Shown: piece by piece, positions 34,832-58,830 of the stretch
How positions within the stretch are numbered: the stretch's first letter is position 1
Layout of the letters: the number at the start of each line of letters is the position of its first letter
DNA from: Oscillospiraceae bacterium
GTDB taxonomy: Bacteria; Bacillota; Clostridia; Oscillospirales; Oscillospiraceae
NCBI GenBank assembly: GCA_031261635.1
Contig: JAISJH010000068.1
Span: 221-64,220 of the forward strand
Length of the DNA: 64,000 nucleotides
Direction: 5' to 3'
Position numbers and translations under genes: made by a program
Notes under the pieces: model-generated
What the model saw: only the letters and a program-made list of their open reading frames with translations
Told to the model about the DNA's origin: nothing
The model's database searches: none

Positions 34832-37800
34832 TTACGCTGCAAAAGTTACTGTAGCTCCAGAGTCAACCCAAGCAGATTCCGCGTAACCCGAGCTAGCCGG
34901 CGTTCTGATATAAATGCTTACTATTTGTGCCGTGAACGCGAACGCTTGCGCCGGCAGTATTGATACGGTATTCTCTCCTGATGCTAGCGTAGCAGGGGCA
35001 AGGTAACTCAAGTACGGGCAAGTAGTCAATGAGTAGGTAGAGTCAAAGGCAATGTACTCAAGCTCCGCAGACGTTGCGTCAAACGACGCTGTTCCTACTG
35101 TTGGTCCGCTAATACTTCCGGATGTCCCAGATGTGATTTTGGTAAGTGCTAATGGAACAGTCGCCTTAACAGGGTAATCTTCAGACGGGATTGTCAATAA
35201 CCAATAGTAGAAGCCCGCTACTGGTGTCCAATCATAGAATCCACCTTCATCTACTTTATAGTCAGTTACAAACTGTGCGTCAGCGTAGGTATACACAGCG
35301 GTTGCACCCACGATATCCGTGGCCTTGACTAATTCCAGCATTTCAGCTGCGGTTTTTGTCGGCGTTGACGATGTTCCCTTAAAATCGGGGTGTGTCGGGT
35401 CGCCGTAAGCGTAAACTTGTGCGCTTCCTGCTAGCGTTGAGCTTGCATAAATCGCGGGGTAGAACTCAGTATTGTCATTCCTGTAAAGCAATTCTACATA
35501 CGTTGTAGTAGCTGAATAACCTGCTGCGTCAAGGATAAAGCGGTTTGGCTTGATATTTGTATTCGCGGGGGCACTGCTTTTTACTATTGTATTTTTGTTG
35601 ATATAATTTAGCGTGTCTCCCACAACATAAGCGTAGTCTCCCGCTGCCGGTGCTGCCGCTACGACTCCGCTGGCAAGATACGCATATGGGGCAGTTGCAG
35701 CAGCATAATCAGCTGCTGTTTTTCCGGATACAAACTGAATTTTAGCTACTCCATCCGGATTGGCAGTAGTCGGGTTTATAACATATGTTACAGAACCGTC
35801 TGTTTCAGGTAAAGTGGTAACAAGGGTAATTAAACCCGCCCAATCGGGACTACGCTGGATTCCGTCCCAAGTTACAGCACCGGCAAATTCTTCTTTGTGG
35901 ATAATAAATTCTTTTACAGTTGCTTTTGTGCCAAAAAGGTCGATAGTACTAAGTGCAAGGATATTAAGCTGGTTAACCGCAAGCGGATAGATTACTTTGT
36001 CCCAGCCTGTGCCGACGTTTTTAAGGGGCTGTTTTTCAGTTGCCGGAGGTGCCGACGGATAAACAACTTGGACAAATGTTGTCGTATCAGAAGCGAAAAT
36101 CGGGTCGTGTATAGCGTTCGGGGTCAACGTAAGATTACCTATGTCAGAGCGTGCCGTAGGAACCGTTCCCGCATAGGGTTGAGAGGTGTTTGTCGACACC
36201 GCTGCAGCGATAGAGGACGTATTACCACCAATGGCAAACAGAGCTGTAGTTCCGCCGGTAGTGATGTACTCATAGAACGTACCTGCCACGGCCGGTTTCG
36301 TTACATTCCTTTTGCCGTTACCATTTATGGCTTCGGTTGTCAATTGGGTAATATTACCTTTTGTGCCGTCATCGTAGATAACGTCAACTGTTGCTCCGGT
36401 TGTCGGGGTTTTATATAGGTTGCTGCCGCTTGTACCTGTAACAACATATAGATACTTAGCAGTCGTGGCCGACCACGATTTGTCAATGATAGTCGCGGGA
36501 TTGAATACAACACCGTGCGAACCTTCGATTAACTGAACCTTGCCTTCGAGCGAGGTCATTTCAACTGAACCTACATCTACCGCGTTTTTATCATACCATA
36601 CAAACGCCGTAGCTGATACACTGTCAACGGTGTATGTTACACGGCGCAAAGTACGAACCTGCGACGTCACTGTAACAGATTTTGGAGCCGCATCATTGAG
36701 GTAGAGATAATTGCCGCTGGACGCCTTTTTCGCGCCAACGCTATACGCTCCGACCGCAGTCGTTACGATAGTGGATTTCGGAACTACGGTAAGGTCAAGA
36801 AGACTTTCTATGGCCGTTGTTCCGCCAAGTGTATTATTAACGAGGTCTTCAAAAATAGAAATTGTTTTATACTTAGTTTCGCCGTTGGAATCCACATAAG
36901 AAACTACATTCACATAAGTTCCAAGGACAAATTTATCTGCGTTTGTAGGCGCAACGCCGGTGAACGCGATTGATTTTGCAGCTTCATTGTCACCATTGAG
37001 GACTACATCGTTGAAATCAAGCGAGAAAGTCGTTGAACCGATGATTTTAGCAGGATATCCGGCATACGGATACGCGGGGTCGTTAAGACCTGCCGTAAAG
37101 CTTCCAAGGTTTTCATAATGCGGTACAAATCCCGCGATGTACTTTCCTGACCCCTCAGCGAAAGCGCTGGCACCTCTGCCCGTCGCGATAAGCGCGGTTC
37201 CGGGGTAGCCAAATGCGTCGTGAGCACTTTCAAATTGGGTATTTGTGAGTTTCGCATAGCTATAGTAATATTTAGGCGCACCACCCGACGCATTATTAGC
37301 TAATTCCAACTCTTTCGTAGCTAAAAGCGCGGTGCGGTTCGTGGTGTACGTGTTAATCTTTTGGCCTGTATACGTGTTTACGTCGCTTGTAACGCGGTTC
37401 GCTGTCATAGCGTTAACAAGGATTTGCGCCGCCTGTTCGTAGGTGATCGCTACGTTCGGTTCTGACACGTTAATGCCGTCGAACAGTCTCGCTTCCGCCG
37501 CATAGCGGATAATGTCAGTCTGAGCATACGTCCAGTCGTTGGAAAGCTCGTAGCCAAGCATTTTTACGAGAAGTCCAGTCCAACCAAGAACGGTGATATC
37601 TTTGTCCGGGCTGAAAGTCGGTCCGATATTGCTCGTGCCTGTCATAAAGCCCATAGCGTATGCCCAACCGTCGCCGTTGCCGAATTTAGTCGAATGGTCA
37701 ACGAACGGCGAAACATAGACGTTGCCGAGTTTTGCCCATTCTGTGGGAGTGTTGTAAGCTTTGGCGAGCAAGGTTGCCGCCGCGCCGCGTGTAAATGTAG

Positions 37801-37998
37801 CTTTAGGGCTGAACTCGCCTTTATCGTTGCCGCTGAAAATGTCTAAAGCGGTGACGACCATAGCGGCGTCATAATAGCCCGGGTCGATTTTATCGACGTC
37901 AGTCCACTTCGCGAGGGTCTCGCCGACGAGCTTTGCGTCAGCCCCGGTGCCGATTGTATAGTCGGCCTGTTTGTCGACTGCCGCGGCACTAGTTCCCC
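34832..37998 (-). CDS. silent S-layer (SLH-domain) protein cassette 1: no promoter, SD, start codon or signal peptide
   Basis: The frame is open from the 42-bp core (GTSAAAVDKQADYTIGTG...) to the stop at 34832, with an in-frame TAA at 38014-38012 just upstream of the core. The N-terminal about 230 aa aligns with the four paralogs (TFTRGAAATLLAKAYNTP; GDGWAYAMGFMSGT..FSP; LLVKMLGY; DIIRYAAEARLF..ITYEQAAQILVNA), giving three SLH-like repeats. Confidence 0.8.
37957..37998 (-). repeat. 42-bp recombination core site, copy 1 (silent)
   Basis: GGGGAACTAGTGCCGCGGCAGTCGACAAACAGGCCGACTATA (read on the minus strand), identical in all five copies. Confidence 0.85.
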
Positions 37999-38126
37999 AG
38001 GAATGTACCGTTTACAATATATGTCAGCAAAACTGGCCGCAAAGCTAGACGTTTAGGCGCGCAACGCTCGATTTGGGGCGTTTTGAAAACTCTCGAAACG
38101 CTTCAAAACAGACTCGTTTTGCCCTC
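37999..38126 (-). repeat. conserved non-coding leader of a silent cassette (copy 1)
   Basis: ...GTTTTGAAGCGTTTCGAGAGTTTTCAAAACGCCCCAAATCGAGCGTTGCGCGCCTAAACGTCTAGCTTTGCGGCCAGTTTTGCTGACATATATTGTAAACGGTACATTCCT. It is alignable with the leaders at 41468-41594, 46773-46877 and 50129-50255. Confidence 0.8.
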
Positions 38127-38170
38127 AAAAAGCCCTCCAAACGGTCGTTTTTTCGACCGTTCAGAGGGCT
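38127..38170 (-). terminator. intrinsic terminator upstream of silent cassette 1
   Basis: AGCCCTCTGAACGGTCG-loop-CGACCGTTTGGAGGGCT followed by TTTTT on the minus strand. Confidence 0.75.
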
Positions 38171-38189
38171 ATTTCAAGCTTGCAAAACG

Positions 38190-38378
38190 CTACAGCGAGG
38201 CCTTGACCCTTATGCTCTCATTGGCGATTTTAGGCTTGCGGCGGCGCGCCTCGCGGGCTAATCGCGCGTCGATTTTCGCCTTTTCCGCCTGGTACCACGG
38301 CTCGAGCGCTTCCCAATCCTTTCGAAAATTCGGGTTTTTCATATTTTCCTCGTGCCATTTTTCATAATTCAGCATCAT
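38190..38378 (-). CDS. HigA-like antitoxin remnant lacking the HTH domain
   Basis: N-terminus NPNFRKDWEALEPWYQAEKAKIDAR resembles the leader segment of XRE-type antitoxins that pair with Gp49/HigB toxins. Where the HTH should begin, the ORF continues as LAREARRRKPKIANESIRVKASL and stops. Start overlaps the toxin stop (ATGA). Confidence 0.5.
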   Translation of the reverse strand: MMLNYEKWHEENMKNPNFRKDWEALEPWYQAEKAKIDARLAREARRRKPKIANESIRVKASL

Positions 38379-38725
38379 TTTTTTGCTTTCCTTTCGAAGT
38401 AGATTTTTCTATAATTTTTTGCTTTTTCAATCTCTTTTTTGGGAGTTTTTTGTGTTTTTTTAATAAATCCGTTAGTAAAAACGATGCGTTTTCCAACATA
38501 AAAAAAGTATAGAACGCGGGTAATATCCGAGCCCTGTTTGGCTCTCAGCTCGAAAATTCCGTCGCCGAGCGGGCTCGAATGGGGCTCGCGAAGCGCGGGG
38601 CCGTTTTCGTGAAGCAGCTTCACCACGCGGTCGACCTTAGCCCACATTTTCCCGTCCAAAGCCCCGATAAACTCGCCGACCGGCGACTTCCCGTCCTCGG
38701 TTTCAAACAACTCAATCTCATACAT
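38375..38725 (-). CDS. Gp49/HigB-like RelE-superfamily toxin (copy 1)
   Basis: MYEIELFETEDGKSPVGEFI...GDGIFELRAKQGSDITRVLYFFYVGKRIVFTNGFIKKTQKTPKKEIEKA matches the phage Gp49-like (DUF891) addiction-module killer pattern. Confidence 0.8.
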   Translation of the reverse strand: MYEIELFETEDGKSPVGEFIGALDGKMWAKVDRVVKLLHENGPALREPHSSPLGDGIFELRAKQGSDITRVLYFFYVGKRIVFTNGFIKKTQKTPKKEIEKAKNYRKIYFERKAKK

Positions 38726-38744: not shown

Positions 38745-38793
38745 AGTATACCACAACCCCACAAAAAAGTCAACCGCCCCCGTGGGGGCGGTT
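38745..38793 (-). promoter_or_regulatory. cassette-end module: GC hairpin overlapping the -35 of a sigma-A promoter (drives toxin pair 1)
   Basis: AACCGCCCCCACGGGGGCGGTT (38793-38772), TTGACT (38773-38768), 17-nt spacer, TGgTATACT extended -10 (38750-38745). Confidence 0.7.
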
Positions 38794-38819
38794 TTGGGTA
38801 ATTACAAGTAACGTCTTTA

Positions 38820-41467
38820 TCAGGACATCTGTAACCCTATTGTATAGAACAGTTCGGGGCGCGATTTATCGTAGTCTGTACCCGTGAAGTGATACGTGTA
38901 CGAACCGTCCTGGCTCGAAGCATTATATCCGACATCTGTTAACACAAAGATATTTATTTGGTCAGCAGTCGGCGCGGCACTTACGGCTTCAAAGGTAGCC
39001 AAAGTCGGTACTATAGCCGCGCCAACTTGTGTCTTTCCTTCGTATGCTAATAGGGCACCTACAGACGCTGTCGTTTGCGATGCGGATTTTTCTACTATCT
39101 TTGTAATCGGTAAATAAGTTGTTGCGTCTGAGCCAATTGTCAAAGTATAGAATGTTCCGTCCGAGTCGGTTGAAATATCCGTAACAACGCCGAAGCCGGA
39201 AACGTGCGGCTTATCAGCCCATATGTCATAGTTTGGTTTGTCAGCGTCAGTAGAAGCCAACCCTACTCCGTTGTGTACTAAAAACGCTCTGCTTGCAACG
39301 GGATACAGCGACGGGACATATAGAATGTCAACTGTTCCGTCAGTTGCGTAAGCAATGTTCTGGTATCCGGTCGCGGCTCTTGTCGCAAGGTCATACCCAA
39401 ATTCGGGAGACGCGGACGCTGCCGGGTTCAACGCAACTTGTTTTACCGTCGTGGTTGAGGTAATACCTAAGGCCGTTCCGGGCGCCGTTTCATACTGCGC
39501 GTTTGTCCAGTTAGGAAGTGCGGGCCAAATTCCCGGGGTAGCCGTAGACGAACCTGCTGTCGGTGTGTTATCTTGTGTCGCAAGCTGTTTCGCAGAACCG
39601 AGCGAATTGCCGCCTAGTGCGAACAAGGCATATGTCCCGTCAGTCTGAACAACATATTCGTAGAATACGCCGTGTGTTGCAACTGCGGTTTCAAGTTCTT
39701 TAAGGTTCAAGCTGTTTGTTTTTCCGTTACCGTTGATTACAGAATTCTTTGCTGTAAGTCTGATGTTTTTGACAGAACCATCTTCGAGTATAACATATAG
39801 TGTTCCGTCCTCTGCCTGTTTCGCCGCAAGCGATATTCCTTGTGCGCCGGTGGCGACGCTTTTAATCGGAACATACAGGTAGGTGGCAGAATAGGCAGTC
39901 CACGTGGCGACTTTTGCGCCCTCAATGAAGTGCAGCGCACCGTGTTCGCCAATGATTGTGTTTACCTTTCCGTCAATGAAGTTCGCCTGATTTACTACCG
40001 CCAAGTCGGTCGCACCATAGGCGTCCAACGTTAATCCTGCTTTTATCGCGGTTTTTGCCGCGCCGTCGCTTGTATATGATACAGTACCCGCAGAATTACT
40101 ATAGCTCTTGACTGTAATTGAAACAGGTGTAACGGCTTTTGCCGCTAAATATTTTCCTGTCCAAGCATATGAATCCGTCGGAGCGGCAGTAGCCTGAACG
40201 CCAAGAACAAAGGTTTTTGCCGTACTCGGAAGGGTAGCAATTATACCGTCAGTAGTGTTTTTCACTTCATCGGCTGCCAAAAGTTTTACAGTAGCGGCAT
40301 AGGGTCCGGCAGACGGACCGTCATTCAGAATGATTGATTCAAAAATGCCGATTGTCTTGTAAAGTTCGCGCGAATCTTCGGTATATTTTACTAGTTCAAG
40401 GAAAGTTCCGTTCGGGACAGCAACGTTCGTCGCCCCCATAAAGTACAGATAAGTACTTGTAACAGTGGGTTCGGTCGAGCCATTCAGTATTAGTTCTTGT
40501 CCTGCGTTGTTCGACGCGTATGTCGAGTTATAAATTGTATCATCACCCGCCCACGCAAGGCCCGGGGCGGTCAATCCCGCAGTAAAGGAATCGACGACAG
40601 CGTAGTGAGGGACAAAACCCGTGATGTACTTTGTGCTTGTGCTAGAAATTCCACCGCTCCATTTTACTAACGCGGTTCCGGGATAGCCGAACGCGTCACG
40701 CGCGGCCGCGTTTATTCCGTCAGAATATAATGTCTCAAAACCGTAATAATATACCGGTTGCGGTCCGTTGTAACCTGATGTCGTGTCCTGTGTCTTTTGC
40801 AAAAGCGCGGTACGGTTTTGCATATATACATCGTACTGCTGTCCGGTGTATTGGTTGCGGTCGTTCGTTACTCGTTTCGCTTTAAGGGCGTTAACGGTAA
40901 TCTGCGCCGCTTGCTCAAACGTAACTTTTGCGGTCGGGTCAGTCACAGTGATACCTGAAAACAATTTCGATTCCGAAGCGAAGCGGATAATGTCGATTTT
41001 GTAGTTTTCAGTCAAGGTGTATCCGAGCATTTTAACGAGCATACCGGTGTACTCGAGAACGGTAATGTCGCGCGCCGGGGAAAATTCTGTCCCGGCTTTG
41101 TTGGTTCCGCTCATAAAGCCTAGAGCATACGCCCAGCCCGCTCCGTTAGCAGCGTAGCTTCCGTCAGTATCGGTGAACGGTGAAACATAGATAGGGCCAA
41201 GTTCAGCCCAAACTTTAGGCGTGTTGTAGGACTTGGCGAGCAAAGTAGCCGCCGCGCCGCGTGTGAAAGTTTTCTTAGCGTTGAAAGCTCCGTCAGTACC
41301 CTCAAAGATACCGAGAGCCGTCACGACCATAGCGGCGTCGTAGTAACCCGCGTCGATGTCGGCCGCGTCAGTCCACTTGGCGAGGGTCTCGCCGACGAGC
41401 TTCGCGTCAGCCCCGGTGCCTATTGTATAGTCGGCCTGTTTGTCGACTGCCGCGGCACTAGTTCCCC
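38820..41467 (-). CDS. silent S-layer (SLH-domain) protein cassette 2: no promoter, SD, start codon or signal peptide
   Basis: The frame is open from the 42-bp core to the stop at 38820. The N-terminal SLH-like region is conserved (TFTRGAAATLLAKSYNTP; AGWAYALGFMSGT..FSP; MLVKMLGY; DIIRFASESKLF..VTFEQAAQITVNAL). The C-terminal two-thirds are divergent. Confidence 0.8.
41426..41467 (-). repeat. 42-bp recombination core site, copy 2 (silent)
   Basis: Identical 42-mer, in frame with cassette 2. Confidence 0.85.
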
Positions 41468-41594
41468 AGGAATGTACCGTTTACAATATATGTCAGCGAA
41501 ATCGACCGCAAAGCTAGATTATTAGGCTCGCAACCCTCGATTTGGGGCGTTTCAAGTTGTCTCGAAACGCTTTAAAACAGCCTTGTTTTGCCCT
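41468..41594 (-). repeat. conserved non-coding leader of a silent cassette (copy 2)
   Basis: Alignable with 37999-38126. It ends ...GCTGACATATATTGTAAACGGTACATTCCT next to the core. Confidence 0.8.
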
Positions 41595-41640
41595 AAAAAA
41601 GCCCTCCAAACGGCCGTTTTTTTCGACCGGTTAGAGGGCT
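41595..41640 (-). terminator. intrinsic terminator upstream of silent cassette 2
   Basis: AGCCCTCTAACCGGTCG-loop-CGGCCGTTTGGAGGGCT followed by TTTTTT on the minus strand. Confidence 0.75.
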
Positions 41641-41659
41641 ATTTCAAGCTTGCAAAACG

Positions 41660-41845
41660 CTACAGCGAGGCCTTGACCCTTATGCTCTCGGCGGAGATTT
41701 TGGGCTTGCGGCGGCTCGCCTCGCGGGCTAATCGCGCGTCGATTTGGGCTTGTATTTGCTTGCCCCAGTCCTCGAGGGCGTCGTATTCTTTGCGAAATTC
41801 CGGGTCTTTTAATTGTTCCGCTAAATAATCTGAAAATTTTCTCAT
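41660..41845 (-). CDS. HigA-like antitoxin remnant lacking the HTH domain (copy 2)
   Basis: MRKFSDYLAEQLKDPEFRKEYDALEDWGKQIQAQIDAR, then the same tail LAREASRRKPKISAESIRVKASL as copy 1. Confidence 0.5.
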   Translation of the reverse strand: MRKFSDYLAEQLKDPEFRKEYDALEDWGKQIQAQIDARLAREASRRKPKISAESIRVKASL

Positions 41846-42195
41846 AATAAATTCCTCCTGTTTTCCCGGTATTCATCTCTGTATTTTTTTGCTTTTTCAA
41901 TTTCATTGGGCGGTATTTCCTGTGTTTTTTTGATAAAACCGTGCGTCAAAACCACAGTTTTTCCCTCGATAAAAAAGTACAGAACACGTGTAATATTCGA
42001 GCCGGACTGCGCTCGCAACTCCAAAATGCCGTCCCTCAAATACGCCGAATGCGGACGCCCGAGTTTTGGCCCGTTGTCGGCCAATTTTTCAATAACTTTA
42101 ACCATTTTTGTTCTCATTTTTTTGTCCAAAGAATTAAGAAATTCTTCGGCCGGCTTGTCGCCGTTGCCCTTTTCAAACAAAATAATCTCATACAT
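41842..42195 (-). CDS. Gp49/HigB-like RelE-superfamily toxin (copy 2)
   Basis: MYEIILFEKGNGDKPAEEFL...RDGILELRAQSGSNITRVLYFFIEGKTVVLTHGFIKKTQEIPPNEIEKA. Confidence 0.8.
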   Translation of the reverse strand: MYEIILFEKGNGDKPAEEFLNSLDKKMRTKMVKVIEKLADNGPKLGRPHSAYLRDGILELRAQSGSNITRVLYFFIEGKTVVLTHGFIKKTQEIPPNEIEKAKKYRDEYRENRRNLL

Positions 42196-42214: not shown

Positions 42215-42263
42215 AGTATACCACACCCCCGCAAAAAAGTCAACCGCCCCCGTAGGGGCGGTT
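42215..42263 (-). promoter_or_regulatory. cassette-end module: GC hairpin overlapping the -35 of a sigma-A promoter (drives toxin pair 2)
   Basis: AACCGCCCCTACGGGGGCGGTT (42263-42242), TTGACT (42243-42238), 17-nt spacer, TATACT (42220-42215). Confidence 0.7.
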
Positions 42264-42291
42264 TTGGTATCCGTTAGATTTATAGTTTAAT

Positions 42292-45200
42292 CTAAGGTGC
42301 CACGTATTCGTCGAGGTCTAGCCCCGCCCAGGTAAGGATCAGGAAGTTAGCTCCAACGATGTCATAGGATTCTGCTGTATTGGTTCCCATCATAAGGTCT
42401 AAGCTTCCGGCAGGTACCGGTCCGTACGCGATTGTGAAAGTCACGTCGCTAAGCAGGATTCCGCCGCCAATCGCTGTTCCGTCCGCTCCTGCGTAGTCCG
42501 TTCCATACCAGTCGTGCCACGGGTTATTTTCCGCCCACCACGCAAGGAAGTCAGTTTCGTCCAACGTTCCTTCCGGCTGATAAGCTTTATCTCCGTCGTA
42601 GCTTCCTTTTGGTGTCGAGCTGTATACACCACCCGTGAGGTCTGTCGACGAGAACATCGTCTGGTCTGCCGCCGCAAGTGCTTTACTTACATAGATTGCG
42701 GGGTAGAAGCCGTTTCCGGCGTTGTCAAGGACTTCGAGATAAACGGTTGTGTTCGAGTAGTCTTTACCGTCAAGAATTAGATATTCGTCTCCGATATTGC
42801 TGTCTGCCAAGGCAACCGGACTTGTTTTATACGTTGCGTTGTTGATGTAGTACAAGTCATATCCGGCAGTTTCCGAGCCGATTAGGTAACCGTAGTCGCC
42901 TTTTACCGGAACATTGGAGTTCGCCGCAATAATTGCTGAGGGTACCGCGTCATCACCTGTAACCGCAACAGTCTTGTTAATCGCCTTGTTAATCTTAATT
43001 CCTACGCCGTCCGAAGTATTTACGAGGTAGTGCGCGTTAGCACCTTTTCCCGCTGCCATAGCGTTTTCAATTTTGATTACGCGGTCAGGAGATACCACGC
43101 CGCTCGCCCAGTCTGCACCGCCTGAAGTTTCGAAATGTACAATAAATTCTTTAACGGCTGTGTTAGGCGTTACCGCGTTAAGTGCGAGTACGGCAAGCCA
43201 GCTTATGTTATCCGGGTAGATGATTTTGTTGTAGCCAACCCCGGTATTTTTTACAGGTGCTTTCCAGGAGGCGGTCGCTACTGTATCGTAAGGATAGATG
43301 ACCTGGGTAAAGGTTGTGGCCGCGTTGGTATAAACTGTTTGAGCCGTATACGCGCCCGGCATATCCGCTAGGAGATACCCGCCCCAGTTCGGCTTTGCGC
43401 CGGGGTCAGCAAGCGCCAGGTTTGCACGAGAGTCGTGTACGGTAACATACGGCGCCGCAGAGAAAACAGCAACCGCCGCCGCGCCGCCGGCCGGAGCCGC
43501 TACGTCAAACAGGTTTACTGTGCTGCCCGTTACAACAGTGTACTCATAGAATGTCGTTGCTTTAACATCGTCCGGGTCTAGATAGTTCTTTGCACCCGCG
43601 CCGTTGAGGGCTTCTTTGTCGCTAAGTGTGATTACTCCGATTGAACCGTCGTCGTAGATAACGTCGAACTGGTCGTCTTTAAGCGTGTCGCTTCTGTCAG
43701 ACGCGAACAGGTTACTCTCTACCCCGGCAAGTGCAGGGATAAACAGATACTTCGCGCCGAGAGCCGTCCACGTTGTGTCTACGCTGGTACCCGCGTTGTA
43801 CAGAACGCCGTGCGAGCCGATTACGAGTTTGAAGCGTCCTTCGACCGCCGTTGATTCTGTCCCGAGAGCGGAACCCTGGAAGTTGTTGTCAAGTCCGGTA
43901 GCGGTTACGCCGTCAACTACATATGTTATACGTCCGAGTGTCCGTATATTGCTCGTTACCGTGACAACCTGTTCTTTCGCTCCCTCTGCGTAGAAGTAAA
44001 CGAAATCTTTAGATGTCGCGCCGGAGTTTGCTTCGTCCTTAATGTACAGAGCGAAGGAACCGACATCGACTGTAGCTTTAGCGTTTTTGGCCGCAAGCAG
44101 CGGGCTGAGTTTGTATTCGGTAGCCGCCGTAAGAGCCGCGGCGCTTGCCGTCTCTTTGAAAGCGACGTCCTTGTAGTTCAGTTCGCCGGACGCGTCGGTG
44201 TAGCTAACCACATCAACGTAGGTGCCAAGTAAGAATCCGCCTGAAAGACGTTCCGGGTGGTCTACCGCTCCGACTTTCACGGAGTTCTTAATTGCGCTAA
44301 GCGTAGTTACCGCGCCGTTAAGTACGATACCGCCGCCGGTCGTTTTGACAGCCGCCGCGTGACCGGAGGAACCGGCTGTGCTAAGCGTTGTAAGCCCCGC
44401 TGTAAAGTCGCCTACACTTGTAAAGTGCGGTACAAAACCCGCGATATAGCCCGCGCTGTAGGTATTGTTAGCCGCTTTAAGAATTAGAGCTGTTCCGGGA
44501 TAACCGTATGCGTCGTGAGCCTCAGCCGCTGTCGCTGTACGTGTCAGCGTAGCCAAAGTATAGTTGTACTTTCTCGCGTCTATTATAGTAGAGGTAGGCG
44601 CAATCGTACCGTCGTAAAGCAACGGTGTACGGTTAACCGAATACGTGTCATAATTCTGACCTGTATACGAGTTACGGTCACTTGCTACGCGGTCTGCCTG
44701 TAGCGCGTTAACCATAATCAGTGAGGCCTGTTCGTAGGTAATCTTTGCGTTCGGGTCAGAGATAGTGATACCTCTGAATAGGTTCGCTTCACTCGCAAAG
44801 CGAATGATGTCGGTCTTATAATTCTCGGTAAGCGTATAGCCGAGCATTTTAACCAACATACCGGTAAACTCGATAACGGAAATCTCGCGTTTGGGGCTGA
44901 AATAAATCTGCCCGCCGGCACTTCCGGTACCGCTCATATACCCGAGTGCATACGCCCAGCCGTCGCCGTTGCCGTAATCACTAACGTGGTCAACAAACGG
45001 TGAGACATAAATGTCGCCGAGCTGTTCCCAGGTAGCGGGCGTGTTATACGCTTTAGCGAGCAACGTAGCCGCCGCGCCGCGTGTAAAGGTGGTTTTTGGG
45101 GTAAGCTCCTTATTGGTATTACCCGTGCGGATACCAAGAGCCGCTAAAACCATTGTAGCGTCGTAATAGCCCGCGTCAAGCTCCGCGATATCGGTAAACT

Positions 45201-45345
45201 GAGCAAGCTGCTCGCCGACAGCCTTCCCGTCCACCGTATAGTCGGCCTGTTTGTCGACTGCCGCGGCACTAGTTCCCCCAAAGGCGAACATTCCGACTAT
45301 CATCGTGAGCGCGAGGACTAACGATAATATGCGTTTTGTGGTCAT
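42292..45345 (-). CDS. expressed S-layer protein (three N-terminal SLH-like repeats plus a large variable domain)
   Basis: This is the only paralog with an ATG (45345), an SD (GGAGGA) and a promoter. Signal peptide MTTKRILSLVLALTMIVGMFAFGGTSAAA; 1017 aa, rich in T/A/G/V/Y as is typical of S-layer proteins. SLH-like motifs: TFTRGAAATLLAKAYNTP; GDGWAYALGYMSGT..FSP; MLVKMLGY; DIIRFASEANLF..ITYEQASLIMVNAL. Confidence 0.85.
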   Translation of the reverse strand: MTTKRILSLVLALTMIVGMFAFGGTSAAAVDKQADYTVDGKAVGEQLAQFTDIAELDAGYYDATMVLAALGIRTGNTNKELTPKTTFTRGAAATLLAKAYNTPATWEQLGDIYVSPFVDHVSDYGNGDGWAYALGYMSGTGSAGGQIYFSPKREISVIEFTGMLVKMLGYTLTENYKTDIIRFASEANLFRGITISDPNAKITYEQASLIMVNALQADRVASDRNSYTGQNYDTYSVNRTPLLYDGTIAPTSTIIDARKYNYTLATLTRTATAAEAHDAYGYPGTALILKAANNTYSAGYIAGFVPHFTSVGDFTAGLTTLSTAGSSGHAAAVKTTGGGIVLNGAVTTLSAIKNSVKVGAVDHPERLSGGFLLGTYVDVVSYTDASGELNYKDVAFKETASAAALTAATEYKLSPLLAAKNAKATVDVGSFALYIKDEANSGATSKDFVYFYAEGAKEQVVTVTSNIRTLGRITYVVDGVTATGLDNNFQGSALGTESTAVEGRFKLVIGSHGVLYNAGTSVDTTWTALGAKYLFIPALAGVESNLFASDRSDTLKDDQFDVIYDDGSIGVITLSDKEALNGAGAKNYLDPDDVKATTFYEYTVVTGSTVNLFDVAAPAGGAAAVAVFSAAPYVTVHDSRANLALADPGAKPNWGGYLLADMPGAYTAQTVYTNAATTFTQVIYPYDTVATASWKAPVKNTGVGYNKIIYPDNISWLAVLALNAVTPNTAVKEFIVHFETSGGADWASGVVSPDRVIKIENAMAAGKGANAHYLVNTSDGVGIKINKAINKTVAVTGDDAVPSAIIAANSNVPVKGDYGYLIGSETAGYDLYYINNATYKTSPVALADSNIGDEYLILDGKDYSNTTVYLEVLDNAGNGFYPAIYVSKALAAADQTMFSSTDLTGGVYSSTPKGSYDGDKAYQPEGTLDETDFLAWWAENNPWHDWYGTDYAGADGTAIGGGILLSDVTFTIAYGPVPAGSLDLMMGTNTAESYDIVGANFLILTWAGLDLDEYVAP
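45237..45278 (-). repeat. 42-bp recombination core site, copy 3 (expression site)
   Basis: The identical 42-mer encodes G-T-S-A-A-A-V-D-K-Q-A-D-Y, the end of the signal peptide and the first mature residues. Upstream of it the sequence is unique (signal-peptide exon), not the silent leader. Confidence 0.85.
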
Positions 45346-45352
45346 TTTGTTT

Positions 45353-45460
45353 TCCTCCTAATGTTAGGTGAATTTTTTGTACGCTTGCATTTTACCACAC
45401 TATTCCCGAATATGTCAAGAGGCAAAAGCATATTGTAACAGAACTGTAACATTAGGAGGA
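45353..45460. repeat. perfect 14-bp inverted repeat bracketing the S-layer promoter
   Basis: TCCTCCTAATGTTA at 45353-45366 and TAACATTAGGAGGA at 45447-45460. The proximal arm contains the SD of the expressed gene. Confidence 0.8.
45389..45418 (-). promoter_or_regulatory. strong sigma-A promoter of the S-layer expression site
   Basis: On the minus strand: TTGACA (45418-45413), 18-nt spacer, extended -10 TGgTAAAAT (-10 hexamer 45394-45389). Confidence 0.75.
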
Positions 45461-45479
45461 TATTTAGAAAAATTATCCG

Positions 45480-46643
45480 CTACGCCACAAAAACCTCCTT
45501 CATATATTCATAATACAGCATAGCCGCCTCGCGCTTCTGCTCCGGCAAGACGTCAATGTAGATTGAGTGGACGTCGCCGCCGCCGCGGTGTCCCATAAGC
45601 TCGCGGCAGACGCTCTCCTTGACCCCGGCGGCCTCCATATAGGTGCCGTAGCTATGGCGGAACAGGTGAAAATGAACAGCGCGGGGGTTAATTCCCCGCG
45701 CTGTCCAAAACCTGCTGATTGCGTTGCGTAAGCCGCTGTAGCTGTAAATCTCGCCGAATTTATTCGGGAACACGAGTTTTTGGCCGCCGCTGTCGGCTTT
45801 TCGTTTCCGCAGCATTTTCAGCAGGGATTTGTGAACGTAGATGTCGCGGGCCGAACCCTCGGTTTTGGGGCCTCCGACGCGCCCCTTGTATTCGTCGGAG
45901 CTTTGCGCGGGGTCGGGAACGCGCTTGTAGGCTTTGACGACGCGAATGTAACCCAGCTCGAAGTTAATATTGCCGTATTCAAGCGCGATAACCTCCCCGA
46001 TACGCATACCGGTATGCAAAAGCGTGAGAATTATAGGCGCGTAGGTGCTGTTATCGCGAACCTCGCGAAGCGCGGTCTTAAGCGTCTCAAAGGGAATAGC
46101 CGCGGCGCGGTCGCGCTCGATTTGGGATTTTTTACCATTCAAAAAGTTTTTTAGAAAGCGCATAGGACTGCGCCGGATAATGTTTTCCTCGAGAGCTATG
46201 TCGAAAATGCGGTTTAATAGAAATTTTATTTTTAATAATATTGAAATACTTGGAGTTTGTCCGTTTTTTAATTGCACATTTTTGAAAAATTCTTTAATAT
46301 CGTCGGGGTTTATGTCCTCGATAAATACGCCTTCAAAACCGGGAAATCTGTAAATATAAAGTAAATAATATTCGTAACCCGCGAGGGTCGTGGCCTCCTG
46401 TTCGTCCTTGATAATTGATTCGTAGGCGTATTTCGCGTAGTCTGTAAGAGGGTGCTTCCCGGCGGCCGTATCGCCCGCCGCAAAGCGTTCTAGCTCCCTC
46501 GCATGAATGTATTTTCCGCAAACGACGGTGAGTTCCTTGTGTTCGGTAAGCTCGGAAATAATAGAGGTTTTAAGTCCCAAAATTTTCCCGGATTCCCGAA
46601 ACGTGTACAAAAGTTTTTCCTGCGGCATTCTTTCCTGTGGCAT
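45480..46643 (-). CDS. tyrosine-type site-specific recombinase (phage integrase family), candidate S-layer cassette invertase
   Basis: Catalytic signature LLHTGMRIGEVIAL (Arg), HLFRHSYGTYM (His-x-x-Arg), and LMGHRGGGDVHSIYIDV (His...Tyr). ATG at 46643 follows AAGGAG. The track ORF start at 46712 lies in the promoter. Confidence 0.85.
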   Translation of the reverse strand: MPQERMPQEKLLYTFRESGKILGLKTSIISELTEHKELTVVCGKYIHARELERFAAGDTAAGKHPLTDYAKYAYESIIKDEQEATTLAGYEYYLLYIYRFPGFEGVFIEDINPDDIKEFFKNVQLKNGQTPSISILLKIKFLLNRIFDIALEENIIRRSPMRFLKNFLNGKKSQIERDRAAAIPFETLKTALREVRDNSTYAPIILTLLHTGMRIGEVIALEYGNINFELGYIRVVKAYKRVPDPAQSSDEYKGRVGGPKTEGSARDIYVHKSLLKMLRKRKADSGGQKLVFPNKFGEIYSYSGLRNAISRFWTARGINPRAVHFHLFRHSYGTYMEAAGVKESVCRELMGHRGGGDVHSIYIDVLPEQKREAAMLYYEYMKEVFVA

Positions 46644-46682
46644 AGTGTAGAAATCTCCTTTAATAATAAAAATGTAAGAGCT

Positions 46683-46712
46683 ATTATAACGGAAAATGTA
46701 GGCAATTGTCAA
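46683..46712 (-). promoter_or_regulatory. sigma-A promoter of the recombinase gene
   Basis: TTGACA (46712-46707), 18-nt spacer, TATAAT (46688-46683). It shares the 14-nt TTTGCCTCTTGACA with the S-layer promoter. Confidence 0.7.
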
Positions 46713-46772
46713 GAGGCAAATGTAGAAAAAAGTCGAAAGGTAGGCGGGAGCGAGGCGAAAAGGCGGCGAAAC

Positions 46773-46877
46773 GAAGCGTTTCGAGAGTTTTCAAAACGCC
46801 CCAAATCGACGGTTGCGAGCCTAAACGTCTAGCTTTGCGGCCAATTTCGCTGACATATATTGTAAACGGTACATTCG
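46773..46877 (+). repeat. conserved non-coding leader of a silent cassette (copy 4, no terminator)
   Basis: GAAGCGTTTCGAGAGTTTTCAAAACGCCCCAAATCGACGGTTGCGAGCCTAAACGTCTAGCTTTGCGGCCAATTTCGCTGACATATATTGTAAACGGTACATTC. It is 1 nt shorter before the core than the other leaders. Confidence 0.8.
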
Positions 46878-46919
46878 GGGGAACTAGTGCCGCGGCAGTC
46901 GACAAACAGGCCGACTATA
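46878..46919 (+). repeat. 42-bp recombination core site, copy 4 (silent, inverted relative to the expression site)
   Basis: GGGGAACTAGTGCCGCGGCAGTCGACAAACAGGCCGACTATA on the plus strand. Confidence 0.85.
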
Positions 46920-49798
46920 CAATAGGCACCGGGGCTGACGCAAAGCTCGTCGGCGAGACCCTCGCGCAATTTGCCGACATCGCGGACCTCGACGCGGGGT
47001 ATTACGACGCTACGATGGTTCTCGCGGCTCTTGGTATCCGCGCGGGTAATCCTAACAAGGAACTCACCCCTAAAACCACCTTTACGCGCGGCGCGGCGGC
47101 TACACTTTTAGCCAAAGCGTACAATACGCCCGCCACTTGGGAACAGCTCGGCGAAATTTATGTCTCACCGTTTGTTGACCACGTTGGTGATTATGGAAAC
47201 GGCGACGCTTGGGCATATGCTCTCGGCTTTATGAGCGGCACCGGAAGCGCGGGCGGGCAGCTCTATTTCAGCCCCAAACGCGATATTTCCGTTATCGAGT
47301 TCACAGGTATGCTGGTTAAAATGCTCGGTTACACGCTTACCGAGAGCTACAAGACCGACATAATCCGCTTTGCGAGTGAAGCGAATCTGTTCAATGGTAT
47401 CACGATATCCGACCCCAGCGCGAAAATCACCTATGAACAGGCTTCGCTGATTATGGTTAACGCGCTGAAAGCGCCCCGCGTAGCGAGTAACCGCAACGAG
47501 TATACGGGTCAGAAGTATGACACGTATTCGCCTAACCGCTTACCGTTACTTAGCGAAAAAAAGACCGGTGATAACTTGACTTATGGCGCGCTTACAGACA
47601 TCAAGTATAATTATTCCTTTGGTGGGAACGACGCGTTCGGCTATCCCGGAACTTCGCTGGTTGCAATTACAAAATCCAGTATTGCGAACAAAGACCAAAT
47701 CCTTGGTTTCGTCCCGCATTACACATTTGAAACTTCGTACACCCAAGGCTTGAACCGCCCGGTCGCGGGTCCGACTACGCTCCCCGGAACTGCGGCACTT
47801 GAGGCCGTTCAGCCAATAGAAGTGTTTGAGAACGGTGAGGCAGCGGAGTACGGTCTTGATTTCGCAAACGCGTCAACTTATGTTCCTGCGAATGGAACGT
47901 ATGCGGAAGTCGTTTCGTATACCGCAAATGACGGCACGACTAAATTCCGCACCGTATCCGTTTTGGAAACTCTGGTTGCTCAGGGCGCATATGACGCTGA
48001 AAAAGTATTTTCCGGTGCGACGTCAGTGGGCGGGCAAAAACTCTTAACATTTGCAGCTTACACACCCGGTTATGCTCTTGTTGCCTATACCGCGACGGCT
48101 ACAGCGGGTCCGGTTTTATCGGCACGCGCTGTCACCGCAGAAAAGAAAAACATCACTACAATAATCGGCTCAAAATTTACCGCAAAAGATGTTGATGGTA
48201 CAACTACTTCCACATACGTAAGTGCGAAGTTGGCTGACAAAACGGTTCCTATTGCTGCCGATGGCTTTACACCGTTTGTATCAGTTAGTGGTTTGAAAGA
48301 TACCACCGGTATATTTGAAGTGGTACTCGGTGAACACGGCGAGTTATTCTACGCGAATGACCCGGCTACAACGTGGTCGTGGGCAACGGCAAAATATCTG
48401 TTTGTTCCTGACCAGAGCAGTGCAATTGCCACCGCGGTTGCTACAAACGTAGCAAGTACGCAAACGGTACTCATTTTGGAGGACGGAACGGTTGTCAAAG
48501 GTGTTATTGCGGCGGCTAAAACAGCAACGAGCCAACATAATACACTAAACGTTGTTCCGGGTGTTTCAGCAAACCTGTTTAATACATTCTACGAGTATGA
48601 AATAGTAAACGGAGAATATGCTCTTTATGCGCTGACGGGGGCGATAGACACAACATACGCATATACTGTTACTGGGGCGACTGCGGGCGCCGTGTCCCCG
48701 GGGCTAAACCCCTCGCTTGGACTGGCGCAAAGCGGAACTGTCGCAGGTGTCCCTCTTACCGCCTTGACTAGCATTAAACAAATAGGCGTCAAAACCGGAA
48801 CGCCTCCGTCTGCTGGTGTCACAAATGTCAAAACACAAACGCTGACAGGCTATCATAAAGTAAAAACATCAGCCACAGGCGGGTCGTACATTTTAGAAGT
48901 ATATACGCCGCTAGCACCCGGACAATATTCAACACGAGCTGTTTGGATTTCTGCCGACGCTATAGGACACGGCGATATTACAACCCCGGCGTTCAAAGCT
49001 ACAGGATATGCGCTTGGGTTGCCATATGGGAACTTTGCTTGGTATGCGGAGCCCATTTACACAGTGGGCGATACCACGTATGACATCTACATTTACAACA
49101 CCACCACATACGCATACGCGAAACTTTTCAATACATCAGATACTACTTTTGCCGGAAAAGTGAGTGGCCAAGATAACGGCATACTCGCATATAACGAAAC
49201 AGAAGTGCAAATTCTGGACGCTACTTATTTCGTAGCAAAAATCGGAACAATAACGGCAGATAACGTTAGCATATTTACTGACATAGGCGGACCTGTGACC
49301 TATGCGCGTACTACGGTTGATTCTCCCAAAATCGACCAAACTGGCGCACAGTTGTTCTTATCTGCTACTCCGTCGACTTTGACTACAATTAACGCAACCG
49401 CTTCTGACGCAATCGCAACTATCCAAGCTACCGCTACAGCCACTGCGGCGGTCATAGGCGGCTACGCGAAGGCCGCGGCATGTCCGGCGTTAGCAAGCGC
49501 TACAGCGTTCAAAACAAATACAAGTAATGTTTGGACTGCTGCGTCATTGAACAATCTTGCCGACCATCTAATCCTATGGGAACCCCTGTGGACGGCGATT
49601 GAATCTAAGTTAAATTCTGACGCGACAAACGAAGCAAAAACCGCTGAACAAACCTATGCTGACGCAATAAAATTCTTGAACGCCGCTAGCGCGGAAGTCG
49701 CATTGAATACCAAGAACAGTACGGATATCAACGTAGCGCGTACTAAACTAGACGCATTTTTAACTGGTAAAATAGCTTGGCTTGACGGTATATCCTAA
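46878..49798 (+). CDS. silent S-layer (SLH-domain) protein cassette 4: no promoter, SD or signal peptide
   Basis: GTSAAAVDKQADYTIGTGADAKLVGETLAQF..., then the conserved SLH-like region and a divergent C-terminal part. The track ORF extends upstream to a TTG at 46706 through the leader and the recombinase promoter (basic junk sequence MSRGKCRKKSKGRRERG, no signal peptide). Confidence 0.8.
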
Positions 49799-49820
49799 AA
49801 CAATTCCGCAATCACCAACA

Positions 49821-49869
49821 AACCGCCCCCACGGGGGCGGTTGACTTTTTTGTAGAGGTGTGGTATACT
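49821..49869 (+). promoter_or_regulatory. cassette-end module: GC hairpin overlapping the -35 of a sigma-A promoter (drives the small ORF)
   Basis: AACCGCCCCCACGGGGGCGGTT 49821-49842, TTGACT 49841-49846, 17-nt spacer, TGgTATACT (TATACT 49864-49869). Confidence 0.7.
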
Positions 49870-49900: not shown

Positions 49901-50074
49901 ATGGCTAAAAACGCGGCGGAAATTTCAGCGAGGGCTTTGCGAGCAAACACGCTTCGCGAGATAAGAGATACATTGCTCATCATAAAGCCCGGCGAATTAG
50001 AAAAATTGCCGGAGGAAATCGACAAACTCGCCGAAGCACTCAAAAAAGAAGCCGACGAGCTTACGAAAATCTAG
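49901..50074 (+). CDS. small hypothetical helical protein (57 aa)
   Basis: ATG at 49901 follows TAGGAGGG. MAKNAAEISARALRANTLREIRDTLLIIKPGELEKLPEEIDKLAEALKKEADELTKI. It sits between a promoter and a terminator in the position the toxin pairs occupy on the other arm. It falls below the ORF-track length cutoff. Confidence 0.45.
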   Translation: MAKNAAEISARALRANTLREIRDTLLIIKPGELEKLPEEIDKLAEALKKEADELTKI

Positions 50075-50082
50075 CGTGAAAT

Positions 50083-50128
50083 AGCCCTCCAAACGGTCGA
50101 AAAAAACGGCCGTTTGGAGGGCTTTTTT
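50083..50128 (+). terminator. intrinsic terminator upstream of silent cassette 5
   Basis: AGCCCTCCAAACGG-loop-CCGTTTGGAGGGCT followed by TTTTT. Confidence 0.8.
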
Positions 50129-50255
50129 AGGGCAAAACGAGGCTGTTTTGAAGCGTTTCGAGAGTTTTTGAAAAGCCTCAAATCGACGGCTGCGAGCCTA
50201 AACGTCTAGCTTTGCGGCCAATTTTACTGACATATATTGTAAACGGCACATTCCT
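50129..50255 (+). repeat. conserved non-coding leader of a silent cassette (copy 5)
   Basis: ...GTTTTGAAGCGTTTCGAGAGTTTTTGAAAAGCCTCAAATCGACGGCTGCGAGCCTAAACGTCTAGCTTTGCGGCCAATTTTACTGACATATATTGTAAACGGCACATTCCT, with an in-frame TAA before the core. Confidence 0.8.
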
Positions 50256-50297
50256 GGGGAACTAGTGCCGCGGCAGTCGACAAACAGGCCGACTATA
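50256..50297 (+). repeat. 42-bp recombination core site, copy 5 (silent, inverted relative to the expression site)
   Basis: Identical 42-mer on the plus strand, in frame with cassette 5. Confidence 0.85.
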
Positions 50298-53200
50298 CCG
50301 TAACCGGCGCGGCCAACTCCGGGCTTATCGGCGAGACGCTCGCTAAGTGGAAAGACGCTGACAAAATCAGCGCGGAGTATCTTGACGCCGCTATGGTTGT
50401 CACCGCTCTTGGTATCTTCAGCGGTACTGATACTGACAATGACGGTATCGGCGATACTTTCAACGCCGCGACAACATTCTCGCGCGGCTCCGCGGCTACT
50501 TTGCTTGCGAAAGCCTATACTACGCCCGCAACCTGGGAAAAGACACAGGGCGCGTATGTTTCGACCTTCACCGATACCGGCACGCAGGGTCAGTACCCCG
50601 CAACCGGCGCGGGCTGGGCGTATGCATACGGCTTTATGAGCGGCACGAACGCCGGCGGGACGCAGTTTAGCCCCGACCGTAAAATCACACAGCTTGAGTA
50701 TGCGGGAATGCTCGTGAAAATGCTCGGCTACCACCTCACCGATAATTACAAAACCGACATCGCGCGTTTCGCTAACGAAGTCGGACTGTTCTCGGGGATT
50801 GACAACATCAACCTCACAGAGCTGATTACCTACGAACAGGCGGCAAAAATCACCGTCAACGCGCTGCTCGCGCAACCGGTTTACAACGACCGCGACAAGT
50901 ACACAACATCTGTCGACGTGTACGAACCGCGCCCGAACTATGCTCCCTTACTTTCGAGTAACCCGACTTTAGGAATACAGGGTATCAAATACCGCGCCAC
51001 CTACTCACAAATCGACGACGTGGCAGATCCGTATCCGCTTAACGCGCGTGACGCCTTCGGTTATCCCGGAACCGCGCTTACATATACTAACGGATACATC
51101 GCCGGCTTTGTACCGCACTATACCGTAATCGGAAAAGGTACTAAGGGGCTGACCGCAAGTTATATCTATTCCGCAGGTCCTACGGGTTATTTCCGCCCGG
51201 ATGGTACGGCTTATGACTTCCAAGACCAATATTTCAATAATGGAACTAGTGGCACTTATCCGTGGAACACAACGACATATGCTGACGAGGCCGTACGCGG
51301 AACCTATGGCGAACTTGTAACGTACACAGATTATCAAGGTAAAACAAAATATCGCTTGGTTGAGGTGTATGAAACTACCGACAATATTACAAACGGAACA
51401 ACTACAACCCAATTGACTTATGATATATCAGTAGAACCAAAAGCTTCAAAAACGACTTTCCCGGCTAACAGCCTTGTCAGTCGTGTAACGAAAGGTGCTT
51501 CTGTCATTTCAGCTAAAGTTGTTACGCCTGTGGTCGCGTCCGTGCTTTCGTACACAACTGCGGACGGATATCAAAACACAGCGACCCTATCAATTGACGG
51601 TAAAACTGTGTCAGCAGTTGCGATTAGTACGATAAACATATCGGACGTACATTTCGTAAGTGACAAAATTACTGTTTATGTAGGTGACCACGGTGACATA
51701 CAATGGCAGAAAAACGTGAAGGATTCCACGTGGTCAGCTGCTACTGCCGATTATCTCTACGTCCCGGAGACTGCAATTGCTGCGGGAGGTTACTTGGGCG
51801 TAGCTCATACCGTAGATAATTCGTTTGATGTAGTTTTAGATAGCGGTAAGGTAGTAACTCAAATCAAAATCGCTAAAGCGGGAACGACAGTAAATGGAAA
51901 CGGTATAACCAACGTTGCAAACAACATTTACGACAAATTCTTTGAATACGTAATTCAATCGGATGGAAGTTATGCACTCTTTGTGCCGTATTTAAGCACA
52001 GCGTATGCCCCTAACTTGGCAATTGCCTCGGCAACTGCAAAATCTTATACTGTTGTTGACCCGGCATTCACGAATGCTAACCCGACGGCAAAAGTTGGCG
52101 CGGTTAACGTAAGTCAAGTAAAAAATAATAGTGGATTTGCCTTAAATAACGCAATATTAGGCTCAAACACGACAACAGAAATCAAATCAGTTTATATAAA
52201 CACAGACACGACGAGTGGCGCTTATAATCCTGCTAACCTAAGTGGACCAATAGGAACTTATACGACTGTAGGATACCAAAACTTAGTATTCCCCGTAGTA
52301 GTTGGCGCGTCAATACGTGTTCTTACGGCTATTGATAACCCATATGAGATGGCGGCGGCCGGAACAGCAAAAAAATTGTTCTCCGTTCATTTGGGAACGA
52401 CGGCATTGACAGCCACAGGATCAAACGTAGTTGGTTGGACATCTTCGCTTCTTCCTGCGAAATACGCGACTACAGTAGCGAAAGTAACAAACGCAAATGG
52501 AGTATACAGCATTTATTCAAATGCGTTTGGAAGTTCTATTGACTATCCGGCATATGATGTTCTCGTTGGTACTACAACAGCGAGCACCGTAGGTGGAGAA
52601 ACACCGGCTGTTGGACAGTACGCCGTGTTTAATGAAACGGATTACTGGCTTGCAACTAAGGAAATGTTTGACGTGTCTGTTATATCGGCAACAATAAACG
52701 CTACAACAGACCAAGCACTCTCACTCGGTTCACCTGCTTCGGGTTACTACAGAGCAAAAGATACTAACGCCATTTTGCCAGACAACTTCTATGTAACTGT
52801 CGCTGGATTTGAAAAGCTTAGTGGTAACGCTATATATACTAACGGCAACGGACTGAAAAATTATATTGACAATTTGGGTAAAACCGCAGATGCTGCTGTT
52901 AGTGCTGCGTTCGAACAGGCCTTTTATGTTACCTTTATGCCGGAAGGCCCCGCAAAGGTAGCAGCTTCTGCTGCTGCGTCCAATGCCATAGCGAGCGCGA
53001 GCGCCGGACAGGTTTCTGCAAGAGCAGCAGCAATTACTGAAGCAAAAAGACTTGTTCCGACAGTTGCCGCGAAACCCGCTCTGTATGCGGAGATTGTCGA
53101 CACTACTGCAGGAAAAACAGACGCGACCCAAAAAACCGCTATTGAAGCATTAGTCAAAGATGTGTTTGGGGTTACTACTATCAACGGTGCCTTAGACGAT

Positions 53201-54097: not shown

Positions 54098-54128
54098 TAG
54101 TAAAATATTGGGAACGCAATCTTTAGTT

Positions 54129-58827: not shown

Positions 58828-58830
58828 ATA

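Follow-up and report, generated by a model that had tools for sequence, protein, structure and literature searches.

To our knowledge, the S-layer (surface layer) genes described so far as being switched by DNA rearrangement either form a pair, as in Lactobacillus, or depend on RecA, as in Campylobacter. In Campylobacter fetus, several complete S-layer homologues are served by one promoter that is mobile by DNA inversion; this sap system is RecA dependent, has a long conserved 5′ region, and encodes S-layer proteins without a signal peptide. A Din-invertase-like site is said to occur at the slp genes of Lactobacillus acidophilus. In that species, a chromosomal inversion sets a silent S-layer gene of the slpA/slpB pair behind the single active slp promoter (PMC3666127). 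Among the mycoplasmas, HvsR of Mycoplasma pulmonis puts the vsa promoter, ribosome binding site (RBS), and first 714 nucleotides (nt) before silent 3′ gene parts, and the vpma genes of Mycoplasma agalactiae carry a 21-bp site that is identical in all copies and for which the adjacent Xer1 was shown to be required (PMC2268961). In a survey, proteins with S-layer homology (SLH) domains were enriched 2.3-fold among predicted gene-altering inversions (PMC9881135). Here, we analyzed a 64,000-nt stretch of contig JAISJH010000068.1 from an Oscillospiraceae bacterium (the window), in which a 43-bp repeat, the core, stands at the head of five large cassettes (c1 to c5) for S-layer-type proteins and in which a tyrosine recombinase gene lies between the cores of c3 and c4. 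The locus very probably consists of one expression site and a set of interchangeable cassettes, and recombinase-mediated inversion at the 43-mer is the probable means of switching among them. Judged from sequence, the best reading of its type is a multiple-inversion shufflon, similar to vsa and vpma, for a large SLH-anchored S-layer-type protein. We found no description in the literature of an SLH-protein shufflon with a dedicated tyrosine recombinase, and the locus most likely represents a known strategy, inversion at a single expression site, in a new protein family and lineage.

The resemblance to M. pulmonis vsa is one of layout: both have one expression site with promoter, RBS, and 5′ coding end, silent genes that lack the 5′ end, a short intragenic site in every copy and in both orientations, a linked tyrosine recombinase, and interwoven inversions. 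However, the constant part of vsa comprises 714 nt and encodes a large N-terminal part of a lipoprotein, whereas here it is reduced to a 23-residue signal n- and h-region plus the 14 codons of the core, in a cell-walled organism with SLH-anchored proteins of ~100 kDa and with the recombinase inside the smallest invertible segment. The vpma genes and the vsp genes of Mycoplasma bovis likewise form a surface-protein gene family with one promoter, an identical site, and an adjacent Xer-like tyrosine recombinase, but their site is in the 5′ untranslated region and every gene has a signal sequence of its own; the site described here is inside the signal-peptide coding region. The slp system of L. 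acidophilus shares the inversion of an S-layer gene to a single promoter, although it comprises only two genes, its products are not SLH anchored and have C-terminal wall-binding motifs, and no dedicated adjacent tyrosine recombinase has been described. Unlike in C. fetus sap, the expression site here shares no more than 43 bp of homology with the silent copies, and a recombinase gene is present. The R64/IncI shufflon (Rci, sfx) is similar in its tyrosine recombinase, its many short bidirectional repeats, its constant N-terminus, and its multiple inversions, but it exchanges short C-terminal pilV exons at 19-bp asymmetric repeats, and there is no shufflon-specific NCBIfam match here. The layout of the smallest segment recalls the hin segment of Salmonella, from which it differs in the tyrosine recombinase and in having its putative crossover within coding DNA. 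Distinctive of this locus are the very short constant part, the site in the signal c-region, the recombinase inside the minimal segment, and the toxin modules in the spacers. With so short a constant part, the whole mature protein would be exchanged, SLH anchor included.

An earlier note on this DNA had located a 42-mer (GGGGAACTAGTGCCGCGGCAGTCGACAAACAGGCCGACTATA) in five copies without a mismatch, and all five are present: at 37957-37998, 41426-41467, and 45237-45278 on the minus strand and at 46878-46919 and 50256-50297 on the plus strand. A sixth copy is absent from the window even at up to 3 mismatches (expected count of 0 from 100 shuffles). The block that is exact across all copies is in fact 43 bp long, with one C added 3′ of the 42-mer, and 43 columns is also the longest invariant run in the five-way alignment, in which the runner-up has 8. 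As had been proposed, the five copies are in the same frame, reading G-T-S-A-A-A-V-D-K-Q-A-D-Y and, with the added base, a further T. Among columns that are amino acid invariant in all five cassettes (Met and Trp excluded), the codon is identical in 13 of 14 within the core versus 19 of 122 elsewhere (Fisher P = 8.6e-9). Mean pairwise nucleotide identity in the five-way alignment is 98% over the 14 core codons and 74% over the following 14, after which there is a plateau at ~55-76% across the SLH-coding region and values of 30-55% beyond. An abrupt fall followed by a plateau is not a gradual decay, so the gradual 3′ divergence described in the earlier note does not hold. The core is a sharply bounded island of DNA-level identity.

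Comparison of the cassettes two by two leads to the same boundary. In pairs that include c3, exact identity runs only 0-1 nt past the 42-mer on either side, and the core is contained in the longest exact match of all 10 cassette pairs, which measures 43-44 nt for the c3 pairs; for these two reasons, the 42-mer is not the conserved start of a longer identical block, the alternative that the earlier note had named. Its proposal that the repeat is a discrete DNA-level junction between the expression module and interchangeable cassettes is supported. Only the pairs among c1, c2, and c4 extend the similarity, by ~45 nt 3′ of the core, and c4 then switches to a c3-like sequence (620 nt at 84% identity, forming an inverted repeat that flanks c3 and c4). 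This mosaic structure of c4 indicates past homologous exchange between cassettes.

The 5′ flanks of the cores exist in two states, as previously noted: the expression module at c3 and a homologous silent leader at c1, c2, c4, and c5, with c3 sharing 0-1 nt with any other cassette on this side. Only c3 has a promoter, RBS, ATG, and signal exon. The promoter (TTGACA-18-TAAAAT with an extended TG; 45418-45389) and that of the recombinase gene are the top two promoter matches across the 19.5-kb region, scoring 11/12 plus TG and 12/12, respectively; the RBS AGGAGG is found at 45359-45354 and the ATG at 45345. The signal-peptide exon encodes MTTKRILSLVLALTMIVGMFAFG, which comprises the n- and h-regions, and on our reading the core would supply the c-region with an AXA-type cleavage site (G-T-S-A-A-A) along with the first mature residues, V-D-K-Q-A-D-Y-T. 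The four leaders have 100-200 bp in common and end in TGTAAACGG(T/C)ACATTC, and those of c1, c2, and c5 contain a TAA in frame and, upstream, a hairpin of the terminator type. The c4 leader has lost this TAA through a 1-nt deletion, which produces a spurious 1030-amino-acid (aa) open reading frame (ORF) that starts from a TTG at 46706 and runs through 46706-46877 into the c4 core; with no RBS or signal peptide ahead of it, this ORF was rejected as an artifact. Just upstream of the −35 box of the expression promoter, at 45432-45453 of the window, is the sequence AATGTTACAGTTCTGTTACAAT, in which TGTTACA is directly repeated. The motif has been conserved at three loci (the window and the metagenomic loci L002, at about 3847-3870, and L005, at about 60-85) and could be a candidate regulator-binding site.

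All five cassettes are open for 881-1054 codons from the core, whereas the two alternative sense frames contain 42-77 stops. The mature proteins would have masses of 92-111 kDa, isoelectric points of 4.5-4.8, and 0-1 Cys and would be rich in Ala and Thr. Classical S-layer proteins are of 40-200 kDa, acidic, and poor in sulfur amino acids (PMC3666127), and the composition of all five products fits these criteria. The Pfam SLH model PF00395 matches each of the five at 22.3-36.1 bits, against a curated cutoff of 20.8; c5 gives the weakest match, and in this cassette no single stretch is individually significant. SLH proteins from an exhaustive search of representative sequences align at residues about 40-230, consistent with the presence of three degenerate SLH repeats. 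The predicted products of the five cassettes are SLH-anchored, S-layer-type surface proteins. Their variable region is nearly an orphan, with 8 proteins at <1e-10 among 1.84 billion representatives, all belonging to this genome or to a single JGI metagenome. An AlphaFold model of c3, built on a 9-sequence alignment, has a mean predicted local distance difference test score of 43.6, too poor for use of the fold. The gene content of the window, which includes gatCAB, priA, and SLH proteins, and its GC content of 53% agree only loosely with a Clostridia-like Firmicute.

The recombinase, whose gene is not cited in the earlier note on the repeat, has a complete catalytic set (R214, K260, H326, R329, H352, and Y362), identified by alignment to XerC-like and XerD structures and invariant in homologues of 94% and 57% identity. 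Pfam gives no significant domain in its N-terminus, where the sequence looks like an excisionase-type helix-turn-helix. In NCBIfam, the best matches are to Xer models and models of the integron type, with scores that fall far short of the curated cutoffs, and no shufflon-specific model is matched. The gene lies within the smallest segment that is bounded by inverted cores (45279-46877; 1.6 kb), together with the expression promoter, the signal exon, and one leader.

These features suggest how the locus could work. A single expression module would be joined via the core to one of five full-length cassettes, while the other four would be kept silent behind a leader with a terminator upstream, joined in three cases by an in-frame stop. 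The neighboring tyrosine recombinase would catalyze conservative, reciprocal exchange between oppositely oriented cores (three are on the minus strand and two on the plus strand). A flip of the 1.6-kb segment would shift expression from c3 to c4, and a larger inversion would reach c5, whereas c1 and c2 would require two successive inversions. A simulation in which each core was the junction of a body end with a leader or expression end, and in which inversions were allowed only between opposed cores, gave 48 arrangements in which all five cassettes are expressible, c4 and c5 after one step and c1 and c2 after two. Since the core encodes the signal c-region, the cleavage site, and the first mature residues, every product would be secreted and processed alike; the earlier claim that each recombinant would have an intact secretion signal and a constant mature N-terminus agrees with our reading under the AXA rule. 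From this arrangement we infer that inversion occurs, that the neighboring recombinase would carry it out, and that the crossover would lie inside the 43-mer.

Coordinates of the cores, cassettes, leaders, and associated genes in the window
Feature	Position	Strand	Remarks
c1 body, silent	34832-37955	-	1054 codons open from core
c1 core, silent cassette	37956-37998	-	Exact repeat
c1 silent leader	37999-38200	-	Terminator-type hairpin upstream, in-frame TAA
Gp49/HigB-type toxin ORF (38375-38725) and 62-aa partner ORF (38190-38378)	38190-38725	-	c1/c2 spacer
c2 body, silent	38820-41424	-	881 codons
c2 core, silent cassette	41425-41467	-	Exact repeat
c2 silent leader	41468-41670	-	Homologous leader
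Gp49/HigB-type toxin ORF (41842-42195) and 61-aa partner ORF (41660-41845)	41660-42195	-	c2/c3 spacer
c3 body, expression linked	42292-45235	-	Three degenerate SLH repeats and ~780-aa variable region
c3 core, now joined to expression module	45236-45278	-	Encodes G24-T37 of precursor
Expression module	45279-45418	-	Promoter, RBS, signal exon; promoter region conserved in relative L002
Tyrosine recombinase gene, 387 aa	45480-46643	-	PF00589 at 3.5e-18; between c3 and c4 cores
Recombinase promoter, TTGACA-18-TATAAT (12/12)	46683-46712	-	Within invertible segment; conserved in L002
c4 silent leader	46773-46877	+	Shortened; 1-nt deletion abolishes in-frame stop
c4 core, silent cassette, inverted relative to c3	46878-46920	+	Exact repeat
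c4 body, silent	46921-49798	+	972 codons
c5 silent leader	50073-50255	+	Terminator with 17-bp stem at 50083-50123
c5 core, silent cassette, inverted relative to c3	50256-50298	+	Exact repeat
c5 body, silent	50299-53401	+	1047 codons

Only two close homologues of the recombinase were found, both in JGI metagenome 3300042601. One of them (94% identical) is in L002, which has the order silent cassette, leader, divergent recombinase, and conserved expression promoter, its contig stopping just short of the signal exon. L004 has a terminal silent cassette, which is preceded (at 1-320) by a toxin and small-ORF pair like those of the window spacers. The cores of these relatives read GAGGAACTAGTGCCG(TG/CA)GCAGTCGACAAGCAGGCTGACTACAC; they keep ACTAGT and GTCGAC but have CCGTGG or CCGCAG in place of CCGCGG. 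Amino acid identity between the L002 and L004 cassettes and any window cassette is only 35-49%, whereas the linked recombinase is 94% identical, indicating a very fast turnover of the repertoire. Such divergence points to strong selection for diversity, with phages or a host as plausible agents. A scan of genome contigs with the recombinase yielded only a 25% identical protein, in an AT-rich, unrelated metagenome-assembled genome (L001), which was rejected for its lack of a cassette-like context.

Several observations bear on whether the cassettes could be exchanged in another way. RecA-dependent homologous recombination, as in C. fetus sap, could act through the core plus the 70-84% similar SLH-coding DNA, in which case the recombinase would be unrelated, for example, a mobile-element relic. 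It would be helped by the 620-nt inverted repeat (84% identity) that flanks c3 and c4 in addition to the core, by the mosaic cassettes (c4 being c1/c2-like for ~45 nt and then c3-like for ~600 nt), which testify to past homologous exchange, and by a core that has no significant dyad. However, the only long perfect tract that c3 shares with any partner is 43-44 nt, which is marginal for RecA, and, because the 5′ edge of the core is precisely where homology stops, nothing farther out on that side could pair. The hundreds of base pairs of 5′ identity that are typical of the C. fetus systems were looked for here and not found. Furthermore, the recombinase gene is intact, has a consensus promoter, lies within the minimal invertible segment, and has kept this position in a relative. 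We therefore regard a RecA-driven system as unlikely. The fact that both ends of a cassette are bracketed by similar sequence, the core at the 5′ end and a terminator/promoter block of ~50 nt (92-94% identical between copies) at the 3′ end, would suit non-reciprocal gene conversion into a fixed expression site, in the manner of pilE/pilS or vlsE. Conversion would leave a duplicate of the donor, but c3 copies no silent cassette (its best match being 84% over 620 nt), and the locus indeed has no duplicated cassette, in agreement with reciprocal exchange. The silent cassettes are complete, individually terminated, and present in both orientations, as inversion predicts, and a recombinase gene is at hand; gene conversion is accordingly a very improbable account of the locus.

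The array might also not be switched at all and might be a set of 5′-truncated paralogues left by duplications, with the 43-mer a recent conversion tract or the product of coding constraint. Switching was not observed, and gene callers give the silent ORFs (P0007, P0008, and P0010) internal ATGs as starts. Against this, the four silent cassettes have remained open over their full length while the other frames are full of stops, and codon identity in the core is far above that of equally conserved residues elsewhere, at the P value given above. Cores in both orientations, a recombinase gene, and a lone expression module add up to a functional design, one that is also found in a relative, and an unswitched array seems to us highly unlikely.

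Recombinase-mediated inversion at the core is the reading that we prefer, and the following points weigh against it. No direct evidence of inversion and no alternative junction were found in the contig and protein collections, which do not contain the source genome. Exact and degenerate scans of metagenome contigs for the core gave 0 matches, and exact look-ups of the c3 protein and of the recombinase found neither. Protein homology searches with the c3 N-terminus and with the predicted recombinant of the signal exon with c4 gave no match, a result that is uninformative on switching because the index apparently lacks the source genome. The recombinase, being below every curated NCBIfam cutoff, cannot be placed in any known family of invertases. 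Arm-spacer-arm symmetry in the core is not significant: when arms were required to measure 9 nt or more, with a spacer of 6-8 nt, the best candidate matches at 6/9 positions and is equaled by 40% of shuffled 43-mers. Of the symmetry elements put forward in the earlier note, the three palindromic hexamers (ACTAGT, CCGCGG, and GTCGAC) are all in the core and are more than expected from shuffles (P about 0.02), but the dyad about CCGCGG is not significant. The proposed model of two recombinase-binding arms around a spacer centered on CCGCGG fails for this reason and because the relatives have altered that hexamer, a change that speaks against it as the overlap region. The most canonical-looking short candidate in the core is AGTCGAC-AAACAG-GCCGACT, with 6/7 arm matches. 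Of the 43 core positions, 5-6 differ between the relatives and the window, a divergence close to that of the flanks, so that the perfect identity within this genome could stem from homogenization, or concerted evolution, and not from a strict requirement at each base. Finally, three of the cores are mutual direct repeats, between which a non-directional recombinase would delete cassettes.

The spacers contain genes that might be relevant to such deletions. Two of them have toxin ORFs that match Gp49/HigB in Pfam (1e-25) and that overlap partner ORFs of 61-62 aa without a family match, and these HigB-type modules sit in 2 of the 4 core-bounded, excisable segments. The c4/c5 spacer has a 57-aa ORF (49901-50074) in place of a toxin pair; no significant Pfam domain was found in any of the small ORFs of 57-62 aa. 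Toxin-antitoxin cassettes stabilize the arrays of chromosomal integrons, and the modules described here might similarly counter-select deletion between direct cores. Taken at its fullest, the locus would represent an undescribed kind of S-layer shufflon in a Clostridia-like, walled lineage, in which an orphan Xer-like recombinase cuts within the signal-cleavage region, the entire coat protein is swapped, and HigB modules act as locks against deletion, a combination that we put forward only tentatively and think doubtful as a whole.

If switching does occur, this would be a walled bacterium that replaces a whole S-layer-type coat by programmed site-specific inversion, and the locus would be a concrete example of what lies behind the enrichment of SLH domains among predicted gene-altering inversions (PMC9881135). 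The placement of the site in the signal c-region could then be seen as a design rule by which secreted proteins are swapped whole with export undisturbed. A 43-bp site with a 387-aa recombinase could also become a tool for multiplex inversion.

Other cassette-like sequences are found among the metagenomic contigs. In L006 (1-10839), the 3′ halves of two cassettes face each other across a 6.6-kb housekeeping block with genes for an FAD-binding enzyme, a penicillin-binding protein, and a hibernation factor. The first two large genes of this block are 75-77% identical in nucleotides to 1478-6341 of the window, ~28 kb from the shufflon here, which indicates that cassette loci occupy different chromosomal positions in relatives; there may be additional archive loci beyond the window. 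In L003, a second recombinase of the family (the 57% identical homologue) lies between 45-bp inverted repeats (1-46 and 1290-1335) that include a terminator hairpin, and it is adjoined by a cassette-like C-terminus rich in Ala and Thr.

A terminator-plus-promoter module is found 3′ of c1 to c4, that is, of four of the five cassettes (34773-34829, 38745-38794, 42215-42264, and 49820-49869). It consists of a hairpin (AACCGCCCCCACGGGGGCGGTT) whose tail is overlapped by TTGACT-17-TATACT with a TG (TACAAT after c1), and it would drive the small genes downstream, or gatC in the case of c1. L006 has four tandem copies of a similar module (2190-3240), the first directly 3′ of a cassette; copies 1-3 are each followed by an ORF of 58-60 aa, and the last is followed by a gene of 522 aa.

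No part of the window matches Rfam. Between an ORF of the TP_methylase family and a 400-aa ORF is a large composite inverted repeat (54114-54595), made up of two copies of a 42-nt AT-rich unit (AGTTAACAGTTATCAAATATCAAATATCAGAG...), then a GC-rich, partly palindromic center, and four tandem reverse-complement copies (Tandem Repeats Finder score of 285). Related short units (TAACAGTTATCAGA, ATATCAAATAACAG, and TCTGATA) occur at 6392-6461, 12692-12773, 58826-58863, and 60538-60613. The intergenic DNA of 3490-29306 has unusually many short tandem repeats with units of 7-36 nt, such as CCCACGT, CGCCCTCCTCCGTCCCGG, and CCCCGTCCAAT, and an 83-nt unit is present twice at 16782-16953.

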